From a virus (taxonomy: Duplodnaviria; Heunggongvirae; Uroviricota; Caudoviricetes): DNA of 44,555 nt. The notes under the pieces are model-generated. The model was not told the DNA's origin. It worked only from the letters and a program-made list of their open reading frames with translations, and ran no database searches. A program made the translations under genes and the position numbers. Location of the stretch: IMG/VR virus record IMGVR_UViG_2684622774_000013. One strand, written 5' to 3'. Every line of letters begins with the position of its first letter. Positions within the stretch are counted from its first letter, which is position 1. This document shows positions 9,796 to 43,500 of the stretch, piece by piece.

Positions 9796-10228
9796 ATGAA
9801 AAATATTGCGACAGGCGACGTTCTTGAACGTATCCGCAGACTGGCCCCGTCACATGTAACCGCGCCATTCAAGACGGTAGCGGAGTGGCGCGAGTGGCAA
9901 CTTTCCGAAGGCCAGAAACGTTGTGAGGAGATCAACCGTCAGAATCGTCAGTTGCGGGTGGAAAAAATTCTGAATCGCTCTGGCATCCAGCCATTGCACC
10001 GCAAATGCTCGTTTTCGAATTACCAGGTGCAGAACGAAGCGCAGCGATACGCGTTGAGTCAGGCGAAATCCATCGCTGATGAACTGATGACCGGGTGTAC
10101 AAATTTTGCGTTCAGCGGAAAACCTGGTACCGGGAAGAACCACTTAGCGGCAGCTATCGGGAATCGCCTGCTGAAAGACGGTCAGACAGTGATTGTGGTT
10201 ACCGTGGCTGATGTTATGAGTGCCCTGC
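9796..10228 (+). CDS. ydaV: DnaC/IstB-like replication ATPase (helicase loader), 3-prime end lost in N-masked block
   Basis: Walker A motif FSGKPGTGKNHLAAAIG. ORF runs into the N-run at 10229-10530, so it is partial. Confidence 0.75.
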
Positions 10229-10554
10229 NNNNNNNNNNNNNNNNNNNNNNNNNNNNNNNNNNNNNNNNNNNNNNNNNNNNNNNNNNNNNNNNNNNNNNNN
10301 NNNNNNNNNNNNNNNNNNNNNNNNNNNNNNNNNNNNNNNNNNNNNNNNNNNNNNNNNNNNNNNNNNNNNNNNNNNNNNNNNNNNNNNNNNNNNNNNNNNN
10401 NNNNNNNNNNNNNNNNNNNNNNNNNNNNNNNNNNNNNNNNNNNNNNNNNNNNNNNNNNNNNNNNNNNNNNNNNNNNNNNNNNNNNNNNNNNNNNNNNNNN
10501 NNNNNNNNNNNNNNNNNNNNNNNNNNNNNNAATTTTTACCGGGAGGAAATTTTT

Positions 10555-11316
10555 ATGGAGACTGTTTTTGACGCACTGAAAGCAATGGGAAAAGCCACAT
10601 CCATAGAACTTGCTGCGCGACTTGATATCAGTCGTGAAGAAGTGCTGAACGAACTATGGGAACTGAAAAAAGCTGGTTTCGTTGATAAAAGCGCGTACAC
10701 CTGGCGTGTGGCTGATAACAACGTTCAGCAGGAACAGCCAATGCAGGCAGAACTGCCGGAAGAAACCACCACGGCAACTGTAGTGAAAATCTCAGAGTGC
10801 GATTTAACCGCGACGATTGAACAACGCGGACCACAAACGGCGGATGAACTGGCTACGCTGTTCGGTACAACATCCCGCAAAGTTGCTTCAACGCTGGCAA
10901 TGGCAATCAGCAAAGGACGCCTGATTCGCGTAAACCAGAACAGTAAATTTCGTTACTGCATGCCGGGCGATAATTTACCAGCAGAGCCGAAAGCTGCATC
11001 GGTAGCGGAAACTGATGGTAAAGCCTTTCCTCAGCCAGCCGGTGTTGCGTTACCAGTACAGGAAGCGGCAACACAGGAAGATATTAAAACAGAAACTGTG
11101 GCGGACATTGTGCAGTCGCTGCCATCGTTTACTGAAACGCAAGCGGATGACCTAGTTTTACCATCGCTGCATATGGCAAACCGCGAACTGCGTCGGGCGA
11201 AAAATCATGTCCAGAAGTGGGAGCGAGTCTGCGCCGCGCTGCGGGAGCTGAACAAGCACCGGGATATTGTCCGACAGATTGTCGATTCCTCCAGTCGTAT
11301 TGTGTCGGAAAAGTGA
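10555..11316 (+). CDS. ydaW: Phage protein with winged-helix N-terminus (253 aa), YdaW-like
   Basis: ATG at 10555 preceded by [53 protein letters not shown]... The track fuses it to ydaV through the N-run. Confidence 0.7.
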
Positions 11317-11748: not shown

Positions 11749-11886
11749 ACGTTACTAGATCAAAGAGCATTAGTTCATATGTAAATTGACATTTTTCTGG
11801 CACAGGGGAGAGCTAGCGTGGTTGTCCGCTTTGTGCCAATAGCGGACATTGCTGGCTCATGGTATGTTAGTTTAAGGAGGCAGGTT

Positions 11887-12909
11887 ATGCCCTGTATTTC
11901 GCTGTGGTATAATAGTTGCGCAATTGATACAAGGGAGCGTTACATCGTGAAAATTGTTTTCGAGGTTAATGGAAAGAAAGTTCCACTAAAATCTTTAAAA
12001 TACATAAGCAAAAAAGATCAACTCGAAGTAATGAAAAACTGGTTCTTTGAAAACTTTGAAGATCCGGCAAATGCTTGTCCGTATGAAAGTAGAGAAGGTG
12101 GCTATGCTTACATATATGGCGGGCCGTATGATGCGAGCGAAGAACTACAATCCATCTTCGGTCAATATGTTAAATCTGAGTATATTGAGGAATTAGTAGA
12201 TGAATTACAAACACAATGTTTTGACTGGTCTGGAAACTCAAATAATATAGATGATTGGTACGATGATGATATCTACGACGCTGTAACGTCTTCCGGTAAT
12301 CCGTATTTAAAATTCATTGATAATATCGATAAAATAAAAAAACTTGCAAAAGATAAAACTGAACAACAGCAAAAAAACCACTTGCTTAGTTTGCTCTACA
12401 CGAATGTTATTACAGCTTTGGAAACGCTTTATGTTGAGCTATTCATTAATTCTATAGAGAAAGATGATGTCTACATAGCCAATTGTATAGAAAAAGGTAA
12501 GACTGAATTTAAAGTAAGCAAAGATATTGCTGCGTTGCCTTTCAAGGGTGAACCCATCGAGAAAATTAGGGGAGAGCTAATCAGGTCAATCAAGGAACAC
12601 TTGATCAGTGCAAGCTGGCATAGCACTAAAAAGGTAATCGACCGCTATGAAGCTACATTCGATATAAAAGTACAAAAAGACTGTCCGATAGAAGCTATTG
12701 AATTGGCAACCCTCAATCGAAATCACTTAGTGCATCGTGGTGGAAAGGATAAAGAAGGGAACCTCGTAGTGATTACAGACCAGGATCTTGAAACGCTGAT
12801 TGAAAATGCATCGAACCTGGCAATTATGCTCTACAACAGTTTAAATGTAGCAACGAATAAAACCACCATTTTGCAACCAGATGACAAACCGTTCATTCAT
12901 GAATTTTAA
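11887..12909 (+). CDS. Hypothetical protein (340 aa) with C-terminal R-x4-H motif, possible HEPN-like domain; first gene of AT-rich cassette
   Basis: ATG at 11887 with AGGAGG at 11875-11880. Alternative GTG start at 11947 preceded by TGgTATAAT (11905-11913) and GGGAG. Motif LNRNHLVHRGG near the C-terminus; coding sequence visibly AT-rich compared with flanks. Confidence 0.65.
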   Translation: MPCISLWYNSCAIDTRERYIVKIVFEVNGKKVPLKSLKYISKKDQLEVMKNWFFENFEDPANACPYESREGGYAYIYGGPYDASEELQSIFGQYVKSEYIEELVDELQTQCFDWSGNSNNIDDWYDDDIYDAVTSSGNPYLKFIDNIDKIKKLAKDKTEQQQKNHLLSLLYTNVITALETLYVELFINSIEKDDVYIANCIEKGKTEFKVSKDIAALPFKGEPIEKIRGELIRSIKEHLISASWHSTKKVIDRYEATFDIKVQKDCPIEAIELATLNRNHLVHRGGKDKEGNLVVITDQDLETLIENASNLAIMLYNSLNVATNKTTILQPDDKPFIHEF

Positions 12910-12924
12910 TAGCGCAGGTCATAC

Positions 12925-13926
12925 ATGGATATTCGCACACGAAAGACAAAATTTTTAGAGTCGTTAGATTCAACTGAAGTGATACGCAAAGCAGTAAGTC
13001 TCGCTATAGATTGCATTATTGATAATCATAATAGTAATGAAGATACCCCCTTAGTTATTACCAGCTATGATGATCTCTGTAGAATCCAGGTGCTAAATTA
13101 TGTACAGGAGTTTTGCGAAGCTGCATTCCCTGATATGGATGAATATTACTTTAGTCCTAACATACTTCGCATCAACGGCAAGACTAGTGAAGAAGCTTGT
13201 ATTAACTTAATTAAACTCTTAAGAAGTACAAAAGGCATGCTATTCTGGTCCGATGCCCCATCGTGGTTCGCTAGCCTCCCCGACGGATTATTCCATGTTG
13301 TTAACATTGATCAAAAAATCGTTACTCGCGGCCTTAATAAGAAAAACTCTAAGCCGACAATAATCAATAAAGATTACAGTGTAGATACACTACTATCAGA
13401 GCTATTTTTGAATGGCGCACACATGGAGCAACCCAACGTACACAACGTTTCTGAGGGAAACATGAAGTTCTATGATGAATGCCATGCTGGATTAATCAGA
13501 CCAATACCCGCTCCAATAGGCGCGTCATACGATGAAGAGATCACAATTAATTCTCCAGATTGGCAAAAGCTCGCGTGTGTAGCTTTACGCCGCTATCAGT
13601 CGAAGGAATGTCATGACGGAATGCAATGGGATACAACCGATCATGGTTGGACTGATGTAATCGCGTATCCATTCGTCGAAGAAATACAATCAATGGATAA
13701 TAGTGGTTATCGACAATGTTTAGTTGGGCTGGTCACAATAAACAATTCAAATGCAAATTCTCCGTACCTATCTACCGTTTGGATACATCCATTTTATCGC
13801 AGGAGAGGGTTATTAAGTAAGTTATGGCCAAAATTACAAGAGTTATATGGAAGTAACTTCGAAATTGAGCGACCTAATGAAAATATGAAAGCATTTCTGA
13901 AAAGTGCGAAACACGCAGATTACTAA
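12925..13926 (+). CDS. Hypothetical protein (333 aa) with GNAT-like C-terminal domain (motif A-like FYRRRGLLSKLW); second gene of cassette
   Basis: ATG 15 bp after the upstream stop, same strand, AT-rich. The C-terminal 130 aa show a GNAT-like pattern (VGLVTI..., RRRGLLSKL, NENMKAFLKS). N-terminal 200 aa not recognised. Confidence 0.7.
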   Translation: MDIRTRKTKFLESLDSTEVIRKAVSLAIDCIIDNHNSNEDTPLVITSYDDLCRIQVLNYVQEFCEAAFPDMDEYYFSPNILRINGKTSEEACINLIKLLRSTKGMLFWSDAPSWFASLPDGLFHVVNIDQKIVTRGLNKKNSKPTIINKDYSVDTLLSELFLNGAHMEQPNVHNVSEGNMKFYDECHAGLIRPIPAPIGASYDEEITINSPDWQKLACVALRRYQSKECHDGMQWDTTDHGWTDVIAYPFVEEIQSMDNSGYRQCLVGLVTINNSNANSPYLSTVWIHPFYRRRGLLSKLWPKLQELYGSNFEIERPNENMKAFLKSAKHADY

Positions 13927-14480: not shown

Positions 14481-14517
14481 AAAAATGAGACCCGTCGGGG
14501 ATAGCCCTGCCGGGTCT
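14481..14517 (-). terminator. Candidate intrinsic terminator of the yeaR-like gene
   Basis: Inverted repeat AGACCCG / CGGGTCT (14488-14494 and 14511-14517) followed on the minus strand by a T-run (plus 14481-14485 AAAAA), about 30 nt downstream of the stop. Confidence 0.4.
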
Positions 14518-14546
14518 GACTGTTAAAGCATTTTTAATATGATCAT

Positions 14547-14885
14547 CTATTTTTTGGTGCTATAGACTTTTTCGCCCGAAAAGTCTGGAGCGACCCAAAA
14601 GTTAATATTAAACTGAGCATCATCGCTTAGTTCAACACGGTGCCAGTATTGTGGTGGGCTTGTTGCAAAAGCGCCAGCATTAATGACTACTTTTATCTCC
14701 GGTTCAGTAGCATTCTCATCAGTAAAACCATAATATGTTACAGTGCCTTCCATTACGCACAACTGCCCAAAAACACCTGCTGCTGTATTATGATGTGTTA
14801 ATAACGCTGAAGGTACGTTCTCTTTTGTGAAGAACGGAGTTGAGCGTTTGATTACCCAATCTTTAGGAATTCTCTTGTGTGTCAT
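14547..14885 (-). CDS. DUF1971 (YeaR-like, TehB-related cupin) protein, 112 aa
   Basis: MTHKRIPKDWVIKRSTPFFTKENVPSALLTHHNTAAGVFGQLCVMEGTVTYYGFTDENATEPE... resembles E. coli YeaR. ATG at 14885 with GGAGGAGG SD. Confidence 0.8.
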   Translation of the reverse strand: MTHKRIPKDWVIKRSTPFFTKENVPSALLTHHNTAAGVFGQLCVMEGTVTYYGFTDENATEPEIKVVINAGAFATSPPQYWHRVELSDDAQFNINFWVAPDFSGEKVYSTKK

Positions 14886-14893
14886 AACCACCT

Positions 14894-14930
14894 CCTCCAA
14901 AACATGCATTAAAAATGCATCTTTTGGAGG
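14894..14930. promoter_or_regulatory. 37-bp near-perfect palindrome with NsrR-box-like core (AACATGCATTAAAAATGCATCTT) upstream of the yeaR-like gene, overlapping its SD
   Basis: CCTCCAAAACATGCATT-A-AAAATGCATCTTTTGGAGG has one mismatch between arms. The core matches the 11-1-11 NsrR motif as remembered. The left arm overlaps the GGAGG SD, so the mRNA could fold into a 16-bp hairpin. Confidence 0.45.
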
Positions 14931-15698
14931 GTTATGTCAAGCTGTTATGAAACACATAATTGATATGTTGATTAGAGGAGAAGATAGAATAAATATGGTT
15001 GTTTTTCGTATAACTATTTGTTTTACTTTTAGTTTATGCATTCTGTGTGTTAGGAATAAGTTATTAAAGTTTAATCAAAAAATCTCGATGTAGTCCACAT
15101 AGATTACTGTTACTGAACCTTATTGTGTGTATTAGTTGTGTTCTGAAATTTCAGCTTAATTATTTATGATGTATTTTTTAACGATAAATATTTTCCCAGG
15201 ATACCTTTACTGTGTATATAAATAAATTATATACGCATAAATAATGTAAAGGCGTCCTTTTAGATATATCTTATCAAATGTTAATGACTTGAGTGGGAAA
15301 TATGATTCCAGCAACTTATCATGTGGCTACTTTATAAAAATAATGCCCATATAAAACAACAAGCGAAAAGGATTACGGATAAAAAAGGAGCGAGATGTGC
15401 GAACTTGTTATTTTCCATGTTTAACCACCTTAAATAATTGATGATGACGGGATGATTGCATCTGTAATGCTTTTATTGAAATGTTATGATAAAAAAGAAC
15501 TTTTGCATAACATTAAAATGTAATTTATCTAATCGTTTTTAATAATAAGTGTCGTATTTCTATCCTTGTACCAGCTATTTGATATGTAGTGTTTGTTCAT
15601 GCTATGTGGGGCTTTACACCATAGCCAGTTTATTTATACTTTATTCGTCAGCCTGAACAACTGGCATCTGCTGCGCTGCGCCATCGAGAGATTGAGAA

Positions 15699-17127: not shown

Positions 17128-17207
17128 TTTCTTACGTATAAACTGCTTCAATTTTGCTATGCTTCGCAAAGCTGTATCGCGAGGCGGATTGCAGACATGG
17201 ACATCGT

Positions 17208-17234
17208 AAAAAAACCGCTTAATGCGGTTTTTTT
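17208..17234 (+). terminator. Intrinsic terminator downstream of Q (bidirectional-looking, A-run / hairpin / T-run)
   Basis: AAAAAACCGC-TTAAT-GCGGTTTTTTT. Confidence 0.7.
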
Positions 17235-17521
17235 ACGTCAGGAAAGCAGGGGAGAATGCTGCTAGTTGGGCAACTGGTCTTTCTGCTCCAAATTATAACA
17301 GAGACCAGTTATAGTTTCGGTGCTGTGTTTTTTTTACAATATTGTGATAACACATTGCTGGCGGGAGTTTTGATATTTCTTGGCAGGGGCTGATGATGCG
17401 TTATCCTGATGTCGTCAACTCATATAAAATGAGATGAGAGATCATTGCAGGGTGGTTTGTAATTCGCTGTTTAGCGGGACAATATGTTGTCTGATACAAG
17501 ACACCCGACGCCTCAGATTAC

Positions 17522-19397: not shown

Positions 19398-19613
19398 ATG
19401 AAATCCATGGACAAAATTTCAACAGGCATTGCCTACGGCACCTCCGCAGGCAGTGCTGGCTACTGGTTTTTACAGTTGCTCGATAGAGTAACTCCGTCAC
19501 AGTGGGCTGCAATCGGTGTGCTGGGTAGTCTGGTATTTGGCCTGCTGACGTACCTGACAAACCTTTATTTCAAGATTAAAGAAGATAAGCGCAAGGCTGC
19601 GAGAGGTGAATAA
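19398..19613 (+). CDS. Holin, phage 21 S-type (pinholin-like), 71 aa with dual-start motif MKSMDK
   Basis: [71 protein letters not shown] is recognisable as S21-like. Two in-frame ATGs at 19398 and 19407; GGAGGTGAGG SD. Confidence 0.9.
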
Positions 19614-19792
19614 TGCCTCCATCATTACGAAAAGTCGTTGCTGCTGCTATTGGTGGCGGAGCAATTGCTATAGCATCAGTGTTAATCACTGGCCCAAGTG
19701 GTAACGATGGTCTGGAAGGTGTCAGCTACATACCATACAAAGATATTGTTGGTGTATGGACTGTATGTCACGGGCATACAGGAAAAGACATC
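19613..19792 (+). CDS. SAR-endolysin (phage 21 R-type lysozyme), N-terminal 60 aa only; remainder N-masked
   Basis: [60 protein letters not shown] has a signal-anchor-release segment. Start overlaps the holin stop (TAATG). Runs into N block 19793-20101. Confidence 0.8.
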
Positions 19793-20101
19793 NNNNNNNN
19801 NNNNNNNNNNNNNNNNNNNNNNNNNNNNNNNNNNNNNNNNNNNNNNNNNNNNNNNNNNNNNNNNNNNNNNNNNNNNNNNNNNNNNNNNNNNNNNNNNNNN
19901 NNNNNNNNNNNNNNNNNNNNNNNNNNNNNNNNNNNNNNNNNNNNNNNNNNNNNNNNNNNNNNNNNNNNNNNNNNNNNNNNNNNNNNNNNNNNNNNNNNNN
20001 NNNNNNNNNNNNNNNNNNNNNNNNNNNNNNNNNNNNNNNNNNNNNNNNNNNNNNNNNNNNNNNNNNNNNNNNNNNNNNNNNNNNNNNNNNNNNNNNNNNN
20101 N

Positions 20102-20542
20102 TCCGCTCTGGTTATCTGCATCATCGTCTGCCTGTCATGGGCTGTTAATCATTACCGTGATAACGCCATTACCTACAAAGCCCAGCGCGACAAAAATGCC
20201 AGAGAACTGAAGCTGGCGAACGCGGCAATTACTGACATGCAGATGCGTCAGCGTGATGTTGCTGCGCTCGATGCAAAATACACGAAGGAGTTAGCTGATG
20301 CGAAAGCTGAAAATGATGCTCTGCGTGATGATGTTGCCGCTGGTCGTCGTCGGTTGCACATCAAAGCAGTCTGTCAGTCAGTGCGTGAAGCCACCACCGC
20401 CTCCGGCGTGGATAATGCAGCCTCCCCCCGACTGGCAGACACCGCTGAACGGGATTATTTCACCCTCCGGGAACGACTGGTAATGATGCAGGCCCAACTT
20501 GAAGGTGCTCAGCAATACATAACCGAGCAGTGTTTAAAGTAA
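20102..20542 (+). CDS. Spanin inner-membrane subunit Rz (i-spanin), 5-prime end in N-masked block
   Basis: [60 protein letters not shown]... is recognisable as lambda-type Rz (Rac rzpR equivalent). Confidence 0.85.
20298..20483 (+). CDS. Spanin outer-membrane lipoprotein subunit Rz1 (o-spanin), 61 aa, embedded in the +1 frame of Rz
   Basis: [61 protein letters not shown] with lipobox and proline-rich region, wholly inside Rz (Rac rzoR equivalent). Confidence 0.85.
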
Positions 20543-40513: not shown

Positions 40514-43500
40514 ATGGAGCNNNNNNNNNNNNNNNNNNNNNNNNNNNNNNNNNNNNNNNNNNNNNNNNNNNNNNNNNNNNNNNNNNNNNNNNNNNNNNNN
40601 NNNNNNNNNNNNNNNNNNNNNNNNNNNNNNNNNNNNNNNNNNNNNNNNNNNNNNNNNNNNNNNNNNNNNNNNNNNNNNNNNNNNNNNACCAACATCTCCG
40701 GCGTCACGGTGGTGTTCCGGGCAGGTGAGCAGGAGCAGTCACCGCCGGAGGGGTTTGAATCCTCCGGCTCCGAGACGGTGCTGGGTACGGAAGTGAAATA
40801 TGACACGCCGATCACCCGGACCATCACGTCGGCAAACATCGACCGTCTGCGCTTTACCTTCGGTGTACAGGCACTGGTGGAAACCACCTCAAAGGGAGAC
40901 AGGAATCCGTCGGAAGTCCGCCTGCTGGTTCAGATACAGCGTAACGGTGGCTGGGTGACGGAAAAAGACATCACCATTAAGGGCAAAACCACCTCGCAGT
41001 ATCTGGCCTCGGTGGTGGTGGATAACCTGCCGCCGCGCCCGTTTAATATCCGGATGCGCAGAATGACGCCGGACAGCACCACAGACCAGCTGCAGAACAA
41101 AACGCTCTGGTCGTCATACACCGAAATCATCGATGTGAAACAGTGCTACCCGAACACGGCACTGGTCGGCGTGCAGGTGGACTCGGAGCAGTTCGGCAGC
41201 CAGCAGGTGAGCCGTAATTATCATCTTCGCGGGCGCATTCTGCAGGTGCCGTCGAACTATAATCCGCAGACGCGGCAATACAGCGGTATCTGGGACGGAA
41301 CGTTAAAACCGGCATACAGCAACAACATGGCCTGGTGTCTGTGGGATATGCTGACCCATCCGCGCTATGGCATGGGGAAACGTCTTGGTGCGGCAGATGT
41401 GGATAAATGGGCGCTGTATGTCATCGGCCAGTACTGTGACCAGTCGGNNNNNNNNNNNNNNNNNNNNNNNNNNNNNNNNNNNNNNNNNNNNNNNNNNNNN
41501 NNNNNNNNNNNNNNNNNNNNNNNNNNNNNNNNNNNNNNNNNNNNNNNNNNNNNNNNNNNNNNNNNNNNNNNNNNNNNNNNNNNNNNNNNNNNNNNNNNNN
41601 NNNNNNNNNNNNNNNNNNNNNNNNNNNNNNNNNNNNNNNNNNNNNNNNNNNNNNNNNNNNNNNNNNNNNNNNNNNNNNNNNNNNNNNNNNNNNNNNNNNN
41701 NNNNNNNNNNNNNNNNNNNNNNNNNNNNNNNNNNNNNNNNNTTGACCCGGATAACGGCTGGGAGACGGCGACAGAGCTTGTGGAGGATACGCAGGCCATT
41801 GTCCGTTACGGTCGTAACGTCACGAAGATGGATGCCTTTGGCTGTACCAGCCGGGGGCAGGCACACCGCGCCGGGCTGTGGCTGATTAAAACGGAACTGC
41901 TGGAGACGCAGACCGTGGATTTCAGCGTGGGTGCTGAAGGGCTTCGCCATGTACCGGGCGATGTCATTGAAATCTGCGATGATGACTATGCCGGTATCCG
42001 CACCGGCGGGCGCGTGCTGGCGGTGAACAGCCAGACCCGGACGCTGACGCTCGACCGTGAAATCACGCTGCCATCCTCCGGCACCACGCTGATAAGCCTG
42101 GTTGACGGGCAGGGGAATCCGGTCAGCGTGGAGGTCCAGTCCGTCACCGACGGCGTGAAGGTAAAAGTGAGCCGTGTTCCTGACGGTGTTGCTGAATACA
42201 GCGTGTGGGGGCTGAAGCTGCCGACGCTGCACCAGCGATTGTTCCGCTGCGTGAGTANNNNNNNNNNNNNNNNNNNNNNNNNNNNNNNNNNNNNNNNNNN
42301 NNNNNNNNNNNNNNNNNNNNNNNNNNNNNNNNNNNNNNNNNNNNNNNNNNNNNNNNNNNNNNNNNNNNNNNNNNNNNNNNNNNNNNNNNNNNNNNNNNNN
42401 NNNNNNNNNNNNNNNNNNNNNNNNNNNNNNNNNNNNNNNNNNNNNNNNNNNNNNNNNNNNNNNNNNNNNNNNNNNNNNNNNNNNNNNNNNNNNNNNNNNN
42501 NNNNNNNNNNNNNNNNNNNNNNNNNNNNNNNNNNNNNNNNNNNNNNNNNNNNNNNNNNNNNNNNNNNNNNGCTGACAGTCCGGGCAGTAAATGCGTGGGG
42601 GCAGCAGGGCGATCCGGCGTCGGTATCGTTCCGGATTGCCGCACCGGCAGCGCTGTCGCGGATTGAGCTGACGCCGGGCTATTTTCAGATAACCGCCACG
42701 CCGCATCTTGCGGTTTATGATCCGACGGTACAGTTTGAGTTCTGGTTCTCGGAAAAGCGGATTGCGGATATCAGGCAGGTTGAAACCACAGCACGCTATC
42801 TTGGCACGGCGCTGTACTGGATAGCCGCCAGTATCAATATCAAACCGGGCCATGATTATTACTTTTATATCCGCAGTGTGAACACCGTTGGCAAATCGGC
42901 ATTCGTGGAGGCTGTTGGTCAGCCGAGTGATGATGCATCCGGTTATCTGGATTTTTTCAAAGGCGAGATAGGGAAAACCCATCTGGCTCAGGAGCTGTGG
43001 ACGCAGATTGATAACGGTCAGCTTGCGCCTGACCTGGCTGAAATCAGGACGTCCATTACGGATGTCAGCAATGAAATCACGCAGACCGTCAATAAGAAAC
43101 TGGAAGACCAGAGTGCGGCAATTCAGCAGATACAGAAGGTTCAGGTTGATACAAATAATAACCTGAACAGCATGTGGGCTGTGAAGCTGCAGCAGATGCA
43201 GGACGGACGCCTTTATATCGCGGGTATTGGTGCCGGTATTGAGAACACCCCTGACGGCATGCAGAGTCAGGTGCTGCTGGCGGCGGACAGGATTGCGATG
43301 GTTAATCCTGCGAATGGCAACACAAAACCGATGTTTGTTGGTCAGGGCGATCAGATATTCATGAACGACGTGTTCCTGAAACGCCTGACGGCCCCCACCA
43401 TTACCAGCGGTGGAAATCCATCGGCATTTTCCCTGACTCCGGACGGAAAGCTGACCGCTAAAAATGCGGATATCAGTGGCAGTGTGAATGCGAACGCCGG

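Follow-up and report, generated by a model that had tools for sequence, protein, structure and literature searches.

A Rac-type prophage of Escherichia coli carries an STM1808-type DUF1971 gene behind a predicted NsrR operator

Organization of the locus

The IMG/VR record IMGVR_UViG_2684622774_000013 holds 44,555 nucleotides of DNA from a virus of the class Caudoviricetes, and this whole stretch is called the window in what follows. It is a Rac-type lambdoid prophage of Escherichia coli, with an integration site adjoining ttcA. We describe here a small cassette located on its minus strand, which contains a gene of the DUF1971 family preceded by a long palindrome, and we propose that this gene is under the control of NsrR, the host repressor that senses nitric oxide. 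The prophage genes follow the order intR, xisR, recET, kilR, sieB, ydaT/U/V, cassette, DUF1367, DUF1364 and a Q-like antiterminator gene, after which come lysis genes, trkG, terminase and tail genes. The window is 100% identical to strain NCTC10444 across 25 kilobases and to strain LD39-1 across 701 nucleotides around the cassette. The elements of the cassette are the following.

14481 to 14517, minus strand: intrinsic terminator, deduced from RNA folding, with a stem AGACCCG...CGGGUCU followed by CAUUUUU; it begins 30 nucleotides after the stop codon.
14547 to 14885, minus strand: coding sequence of the DUF1971 (STM1808-type) protein, 112 residues, 339 nucleotides with the stop codon, starting with the ATG at 14885 (Pfam, orthologue alignment and the Prokaryotic Genome Annotation Pipeline, PGAP).
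14888 to 14898, minus strand: Shine-Dalgarno run GGAGGAGGTGG, of which only 14894-14898 (GGAGG) is inside a palindrome arm.
14894 to 14930, no strand: full 37-base-pair palindrome from the inverted-repeat search, consisting of the NsrR box and 7-base-pair flanks CCTCCAA / TTGGAGG.
14901 to 14923, no strand: predicted NsrR operator of the 11-1-11 inverted-repeat type, which reads AAGATGCATTT-T-TAATGCATGTT along the gene strand, assigned from its matrix score and its conservation in orthologues.
14912 to 14917, minus strand: putative -10 hexamer CATTTT, at box positions 7-12, with a 17-base-pair spacer from the -35 hexamer.
14935 to 14940, minus strand: perfect -35 hexamer TTGACA, read from the sequence, 11 nucleotides upstream of the box.

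The gene and its Salmonella counterpart

The protein matches the whole DUF1971 profile, positions 1-80 of 80 (PF09313, E = 2.3e-26), with 92 bits where the cutoff is 23.1, and PGAP annotates the same 339-nucleotide coding sequence starting at 14885. The 11 chromosomal orthologues that we aligned are 73-82% identical to the prophage protein, every one starting with MSH or MTH, and the Kluyvera loci encode proteins of 79-82% identity. Chromosomal members of this tightly conserved orthologue group occur in Salmonella, Kluyvera, Leclercia, Citrobacter, Klebsiella, Raoultella, Vibrio, Aliivibrio, Photobacterium and Shewanella. Three histidines, H31, H32 and H82 in the numbering of the prophage protein, are invariant in the alignment of 12 sequences. 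In STM1808, H32 and H82 were reportedly identified as zinc ligands by Karlinsey in 2012.

The prophage protein also matches the structure 3DL3 of the PDB, whose entry bears the name 'tellurite resistance protein B', over residues 1-111 (E = 3.5e-59, about 78% identity by count from the alignment), and its fold can therefore be taken as known. Weaker matches were obtained with the YeaR structure (PDB 3BB6, E = 1.6e-24) and with the N-terminal domain of Haemophilus TehB (PDB 3M70, E = 5e-11). The label 'TehB' is an annotation carry-over from the latter domain; we rejected this identity, as the prophage protein obtains 49 bits with the NCBIfam TehB model, whose cutoff is 303, and contains no methyltransferase domain. 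A PADLOC search for anti-phage defence systems gave no match for the DUF1971 protein.

A longer open reading frame of 120 residues, starting from an ATG at 14909 inside the box, was also considered and rejected, the orthologues and PGAP both starting at 14885. Two database proteins of 120-121 residues (P0001 and P0002) do start at this in-box ATG (MHVLEEVVMTHK...), with eight additional residues found in no orthologue. To judge from the alignment, the in-box start of many public entries is probably a misannotation of the start codon.

In the original prediction the gene was described as yeaR-like. Its membership of the DUF1971 family holds, but the gene is not a copy of yeaR: the protein is only 41% identical to YeaR, against 79% to a dsbB-linked Salmonella protein (P0014). 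The gene of the latter lies in the neighbourhood fadR-nhaB-dsbB-gene-...-minCDE and, from this neighbourhood and the LT2 gene numbering, we take P0014 to be STM1808. On the strength of sequence identity, the prophage gene is the counterpart of the dsbB-linked Salmonella gene and not of yeaR.

The core of the palindrome as an NsrR operator

The palindrome consists of two 17-nucleotide arms (14894-14910 and 14914-14930) around a 3-nucleotide centre, and the arms are complementary at 16 of 17 positions. A 37-base-pair palindrome with one mismatch had been announced at this place, and our search agrees. It is the sole inverted repeat of its quality (arms of at least 17 nucleotides, a loop of at most 10 nucleotides and at most one mismatch) in the 44.5 kilobases of the window, and none was recovered in 40 Markov-1 shuffles.

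Its core, at 14901-14923, reads AACATGCATTAAAAATGCATCTT on the plus strand and AAGATGCATTTTTAATGCATGTT on the gene strand, and one of its half-sites is the ytfE half-site AAGATGCATTT at 11 of 11 positions. A resemblance of this core to an NsrR box had been suggested. We scanned the window with a symmetrised weight matrix made from 27 11-1-11 sites of E. coli CFT073 (PMC5320621, Table 4), and the core obtained 27.1 bits, which places it second among 28 sites, below ytfE only (30.6 bits); the training sites of hcp, yeaR and hmp score 24.5, 22.5 and 19.4 bits, respectively. The second-best site in the window has 12.0 bits, and none of 8.6 million random positions in composition-matched sequence reached 27.1 bits. 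A matrix derived solely from the sites positive in chromatin immunoprecipitation (ChIP) led to the same ranking. Judged by its sequence, the core of the palindrome is thus an excellent NsrR operator, and the suggested resemblance is borne out.

The matrix was also applied to the upstream 300 nucleotides of orthologue loci, 80 of them chromosomal and 37 from IMG/VR. Nearly every Enterobacteriaceae locus displays a box of 24-31 bits ending 15-27 nucleotides before the ATG, in Kluyvera, Leclercia, Citrobacter, Klebsiella, Raoultella, Salmonella, Pantoea and Enterobacter, and the remainder of each 8-kilobase locus seldom gives more than 14 bits. Since the box is conserved in the enterobacterial loci, we propose that the operator is ancestral to the gene in enterobacteria and travelled with it into the phage. 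In most Vibrionaceae loci, no proximal NsrR box was found in the 300 nucleotides scanned.

Some observations on these loci can be added. Most Vibrio, Aliivibrio and Shewanella orthologues (loci L031, L036, L044, L053, L069 and others) have a best score below 12 bits within the 300 nucleotides. Three marine loci, two from Neptunomonas and one from Parendozoicomonas (L067, L070, L077), contain a 22-24-bit site elsewhere in the locus, a position that suggests an operon or a different regulation. A sequence resembling a Fur box (GATAATGAGATTTATTATC, 15-17 of 19 positions) is found just upstream of the -35 hexamer of Kluyvera, Pseudescherichia, Silvania, Buttiauxella and Photobacterium orthologues (L004, L006, L014, L022 and L025, about 65 nucleotides before the ATG, and L056), and other Kluyvera and Leclercia loci have a weaker match of 13-14 of 19. 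No Fur box was found in the window or in the Citrobacter, Klebsiella and Salmonella loci, where the best matches are 10-11 of 19 (11 of 19 in the window).

We also asked whether other phage genes are preceded by NsrR boxes. Of the 10 matches obtained when IMG/VR was scanned with a strict pattern, seven correspond to this cassette or to a related DUF1971 locus and three to unrelated AT-rich contigs; this candidate class was dropped.

A promoter predicted to overlap the operator

A TTGACA-like hexamer (at least 4 of 6 positions) stands at a gap of 11-12 nucleotides from the box in 47 of 53 loci, any other offset being found in at most 16 of the 53. The upstream sequences are otherwise unalignable between clades, yet the distance of the -35 hexamer from the box is fixed. 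It follows from this fixed position that the -10 hexamer should fall inside the box and the transcription start in its 3' half, so that, on comparative grounds, the box would cover the core promoter. In the window, the start site would be at about 14905, give or take 3 nucleotides, in the 3' half-site. Box positions 7-12, which would form the -10 hexamer, read CATTTT in the window, TATTTT in Kluyvera, TATATT in Citrobacter and CATATT in Klebsiella, and the strengths of the two hexamers are complementary, TTGACA being associated with CATTTT and TTGCCT with TATATT.

Proposed control by NsrR

Lambdoid morons are cargo genes equipped with a promoter and a terminator of their own, examples being bor and lom of phage lambda or sodCI of Gifsy-2. 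We propose that the cassette, from 14481 to 14940 on the minus strand, is a self-contained moron made of a sigma-70 promoter, an NsrR operator, the STM1808-type DUF1971 gene and an intrinsic terminator. Binding of NsrR, a [4Fe-4S] repressor of the host, to the 11-1-11 box covering the -10 hexamer and the start site would shut the promoter by occlusion. Nitric oxide would nitrosylate the cluster and cause NsrR to leave the DNA, after which a monocistronic mRNA with a short leader could be transcribed. Its product would be a small beta-barrel protein, a close relative of PDB 3DL3.

The excellent score of the operator, together with the conservation of the box upstream of Enterobacteriaceae orthologues, makes transcriptional control responsive to nitric oxide the best reading of the locus, in line with the original prediction. 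A cargo cassette repressed by NsrR through promoter occlusion and induced by nitric oxide is, on this comparative evidence, what we consider likely; the binding of NsrR, the induction by nitric oxide and a benefit to the lysogen are what we infer from it.

Several points nevertheless weigh against this proposal. A matrix match is no proof of occupancy, and the ChIP-seq study of CFT073 missed yeaR and ygbA, the regulation of tehA being disputed (PMC5320621). In another common allele of the prophages one half-site is weaker, and the score is 19.9 bits. Finally, the putative -10 hexamer CATTTT agrees with the consensus at only 3 of 6 positions, and a generic promoter scan called no minus-strand promoter at the cassette.

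Comparison with known NsrR-controlled genes

The prophage gene and STM1808 are both monocistronic and, besides the 79% identity of their products, share the invariant H31, H32 and H82. In Salmonella, an NsrR box of 20-29 bits is found just upstream of the Shine-Dalgarno sequence, with the -35 hexamer 11-12 nucleotides upstream of the box. However, STM1808 has a fixed place on the chromosome, between dsbB and the min locus, whereas here the gene is carried as cargo by a Rac-type prophage and is oriented against the phage genes, and the distance from the box to the ATG is 27 nucleotides in Salmonella against 15 in the prophage. A 'tehB homologue' was predicted by Rodionov in 2005 to be an NsrR target in enterobacteria (PMC1274295). 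Later work, citing Karlinsey 2012, counts STM1808 among the genes of the NsrR regulon and gives it a part in virulence (PMC7527575). The Salmonella counterpart is reported to aid resistance to nitrosative stress as well as virulence.

The yeaR-yoaG operon of E. coli belongs to the same comparison, its first gene being of the DUF1971 family and preceded by an NsrR box of 22-24 bits. The yeaR promoter is also said to be activated by NarL, according to work of Lin et al. in 2007. The operon differs from the prophage cassette by the low identity of YeaR mentioned above, by a box located 66 nucleotides before the ATG and by its bicistronic arrangement with yoaG. The operon is inducible by nitrate and nitric oxide (PMC5320621).

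The operators of ytfE, hmp and hcp resemble that of the cassette in being 11-1-11 inverted repeats located 14-26 nucleotides before the ATG and, in the case of ytfE, in having a -35-like hexamer (TTATAG) 11 nucleotides upstream of the box. They differ in the extension of the palindrome past the box, which is 0-3 base pairs for them and 7 base pairs here.

Origin of the palindrome extension

We considered the extension as a general property of NsrR sites and rejected this idea, as the palindromes of ytfE, hmp, hcp and yeaR extend by 0-3 base pairs only. Because these four sites and most Kluyvera and Klebsiella loci lack the extension, NsrR does not need it. Extensions of 7-11 base pairs are nonetheless present in separate clades, with unrelated sequences and compensatory changes. 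The flank pairs are CCTCCAA/TTGGAGG, CCCTCAAA/TTTGAGGG and CCATCAAA/TTTGATG in the E. coli prophages, GCATCTAT/ATAGATGC, GCATTTAT/ATAAATGC, GCACCTAT/ATAGGTGC and GCTTTAT/ATAAAGC in Citrobacter, and TCATCTAT/ATAGATGA in Yokenella; in Raoultella planticola the extension has 10 base pairs, one of them mismatched. Across an alignment of 64 sequences each of the ten flank pairs has changed on both sides, and the covariation score of the flanks is 0.221, against 0.141 after shuffling (reached in 0 of 500 cases) and at most 0.135 with slid partners.

Within E. coli prophages, two further alleles of the palindrome region were found, AACACGCATTTATAATGCATGTT and AAGGTGCATTTATAATGCATGTT. Between the allele of the window and the second common one (L084, L095 and related loci), in cassettes that are otherwise 99% identical, 9 of 801 nucleotides differ, and five of these differences are inside the 37-nucleotide palindrome (P = 2e-5); the differing pair formed by 14926 and 14898 is compensatory between the two. 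Near-identical prophages display stepwise states, from CCCTCAAA/TTTGAGG to CCCTCAAA/TTTGATG and then to CCATCAAA/TTTGATG. The palindrome can be seen as a substitution hotspot (14898-14926) in which intermediate and compensated states are both present (L003, L084, L088).

The explanation that we favour on these sequence patterns is mutational, although we hold it tentatively and give it slightly less than an even chance. A near-perfect 23-base-pair palindrome would promote intrastrand template switching while the DNA is replicated, the so-called correction of quasi-palindromes, which would symmetrise and lengthen the flanks and create a mutation hotspot, the extension itself being functionless. 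This would account for extensions of unrelated sequence having arisen in separate clades, for the stepwise flank states, for the concentration of allele differences inside the palindrome and for the missing extension at most Kluyvera and Klebsiella loci and at ytfE, hmp, hcp and yeaR. On the other hand, template switching is deduced here from the pattern alone, and selection for pairing predicts the same compensatory changes. The core palindrome of ytfE is moreover equally good and has no extension, and template switching removes mismatches, so that an excess of new substitutions is left unexplained by this process alone. Whatever its cause, the compensatory and hotspot-like change of this palindrome offers a small natural case of the evolution of a strong palindromic operator.

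The palindrome is itself enclosed by a second repeat.

14876 to 14888 and 14944 to 14956, no strand: outer imperfect inverted repeat of 13 nucleotides, 12 of 13 complementary, which encloses the promoter, the palindrome, the Shine-Dalgarno run and the start codon.

A 91-nucleotide RNA spanning this outer repeat would fold with -37.2 kcal/mol (z = -6.6), and Rfam gave for it only a spurious match of miRNA type. One could assume that the cassette is a lysogenic-conversion gene for nitric oxide resistance, a function missing from the E. coli chromosome, in which the extended palindrome and the outer repeat (14876-14956) have been kept by selection and not by mutational bias, a view that we regard as unlikely. 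If so, a possible role of the hairpin would be to silence the translation of a read-through or antisense transcript coming from the Q side, for example a paQ-like CII-dependent antisense RNA, and the gene would then be expressed only from the NsrR-gated promoter. It is also possible that NsrR bound to the DNA acts as a roadblock coupling nitric oxide sensing to rightward phage transcription towards Q.

A hairpin proposed to sequester the Shine-Dalgarno sequence

If both arms of the palindrome were present in one RNA, they would form a 16-base-pair hairpin of -23 to -25 kcal/mol (z = -5.7), whose 3' arm, on the mRNA strand, covers the GGAGG (14894-14898) of the Shine-Dalgarno run. The original prediction, which had described a 16-base-pair hairpin ending in GGAGG, is right about the fold, but the 5' arm appears to lie outside the mRNA of the gene, given that the -35 hexamer is fixed at 11-12 nucleotides from the box in 47 of 53 loci. 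The translational control that had been suggested together with it is not supported by the analysis, the 5' arm being in the predicted promoter spacer, the deduced leader unstructured and the coverage of the Shine-Dalgarno sequence not kept in other clades.

A dual control, in which repression by NsrR would be combined with a regulation of translation by the 37-nucleotide palindrome hairpin sequestering the Shine-Dalgarno sequence, appears to us very unlikely. The strength of the hairpin and the compensatory changes of the flanks would fit with it, as would the possible pairing, in each of the three E. coli prophage alleles but with differing geometries, between an upstream CCUC and the Shine-Dalgarno GAGG. 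However, the conserved -35 hexamer is 4 nucleotides upstream of the 5' arm, which is thus the spacer between -35 and -10, and the 5' untranslated region expected from about 14906 is without significant structure (-2.2 kcal/mol, z = +0.7). A minus-strand promoter further upstream that would transcribe both arms was searched for and rejected: the scan called none, and the reading of 200 nucleotides upstream gave nothing convincing. In addition, the extended arms of Citrobacter end 5-6 nucleotides before the Shine-Dalgarno sequence, the extension is mostly missing in Kluyvera and Klebsiella, and the hairpin would pair only the first GGAGG, the AGGUGG of the run staying unpaired. A known RNA family was rejected as well, Rfam giving only a spurious mir-616 match (22 bits against a cutoff of 100) due to the long hairpin.

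Still further down, we give almost no credit to the idea that the palindrome is not an NsrR site at all, and would be a chance AT-rich palindrome or the operator of another, possibly phage-encoded, regulator: the box is indeed AT-rich with ATGCAT present twice, and three unrelated AT-rich contigs of IMG/VR match the pattern exactly, apparently by chance, but one of its half-sites is that of ytfE, no random position equalled its score, the box is kept upstream of chromosomal, non-phage orthologues in many genera, the prophage annotation contains no gene for an Rrf2-family regulator, and the Salmonella orthologue is reported as NsrR-regulated (PMC7527575).

The cassette as prophage cargo

The cassette is oriented against the phage genes around it and has a guanine plus cytosine (GC) content of 0.41, lower than the 0.46-0.49 of the flanking phage modules. 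It has its own promoter and terminator, with the -35 hexamer and the box upstream of the gene and the terminator at 14481-14517. Phages Rac-SA53 and vB_EcoS-683R6 share the DUF1367-ybcO-Q module with 87-89% identity and contain other cargo in the same slot, namely hok/mok/rem in Rac-SA53 and an FtsH-like protein with an S8 peptidase in vB_EcoS-683R6. The description of the gene as a prophage moron is supported by these features and by the Rac-type prophage next to ttcA.

The cassette resembles the lambdoid morons in its own promoter and terminator, its opposite orientation, its lower GC content and its variable slot by the Q module, as well as, according to our prediction, in being expressed under a host regulator and not under the phage programme. 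It differs from them in that the regulator would be NsrR and the cargo a gene of nitric oxide stress.

Distribution and significance

The cassette is present in 466 of 5426 complete E. coli genomes (about 9%) and in at least one Shigella genome, and phages vB_EcoS-666R9, vB_EcoS-673R7 and vB_EcoS-613R10 carry it with 95% identity. A probe joining the end of Salmonella dsbB to STM1808 was never contiguous in E. coli, where it matched the dsbB end alone or the prophage copy (about 74% identity), and we therefore conclude that E. coli has no chromosomal orthologue.

The gene family, the control by NsrR in Salmonella, the operator type and prophage morons are already known. In the literature, we found no report of a prophage-borne copy in E. 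coli or Shigella, nor of a phage moron combining NsrR control with nitric oxide-stress cargo. The cassette would thus be phage cargo brought under a stress regulon of its host, and no new mechanism is involved.

What the locus would illustrate is the capture by a phage of a host stress gene with its promoter and operator intact, whereby the cargo would be under the nitric oxide sensor of its new host from the outset. Through a Rac-type prophage, about 9% of complete E. coli genomes possess a gene that is chromosomal in Salmonella. Should this gene be functional, the NsrR regulon of carrier strains gains a strain-specific member, and a defined mechanism would be available for the way in which cryptic prophages help E. 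coli against host-derived stress.

Other features of the window

Between the cassette and the DUF1367 gene extends an AT-rich spacer of 758 nucleotides (14941-15698, GC content 0.305) with no convincing open reading frame. A promoter-like site, TTTACA-16-TATACT, is located on the plus strand at 15613-15640, just before DUF1367.

To the left of the cassette, a variable slot contains two hypothetical genes of low GC content (0.38), at 11818-12909 and 12925-13926. One shows a weak HEPN/RES-NTD1 match with an R-x4-H-like motif and the other a weak C-terminal GNAT match, both below the Pfam cutoffs; they may be a toxin or defence pair. Strain LD39-1 has three different hypothetical genes in this slot.

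Five runs of N of 167-313 nucleotides interrupt the window (10229-10530, 19793-20101, 40521-40687, 41448-41741 and 42258-42570), and the open reading frames crossing them, for example 9796-11316 and 19613-20542, are masking artefacts.

About 80 nucleotides after the Q-like gene, at 17205-17237, a perfect palindrome with a GC stem and A- and T-runs (AAAAAAACCGCTTAATGCGGTTTTTTT) looks like an ordinary lambdoid tR'-type bidirectional terminator. The record of the Actinobacillus phage vB_Apl-pPE4 (H48, PP818812.1) is 93.5% identical over 900 nucleotides to the E. coli Rac Q-module, a match unexpected for A. pleuropneumoniae, which could come from E. coli prophage sequence in that record.

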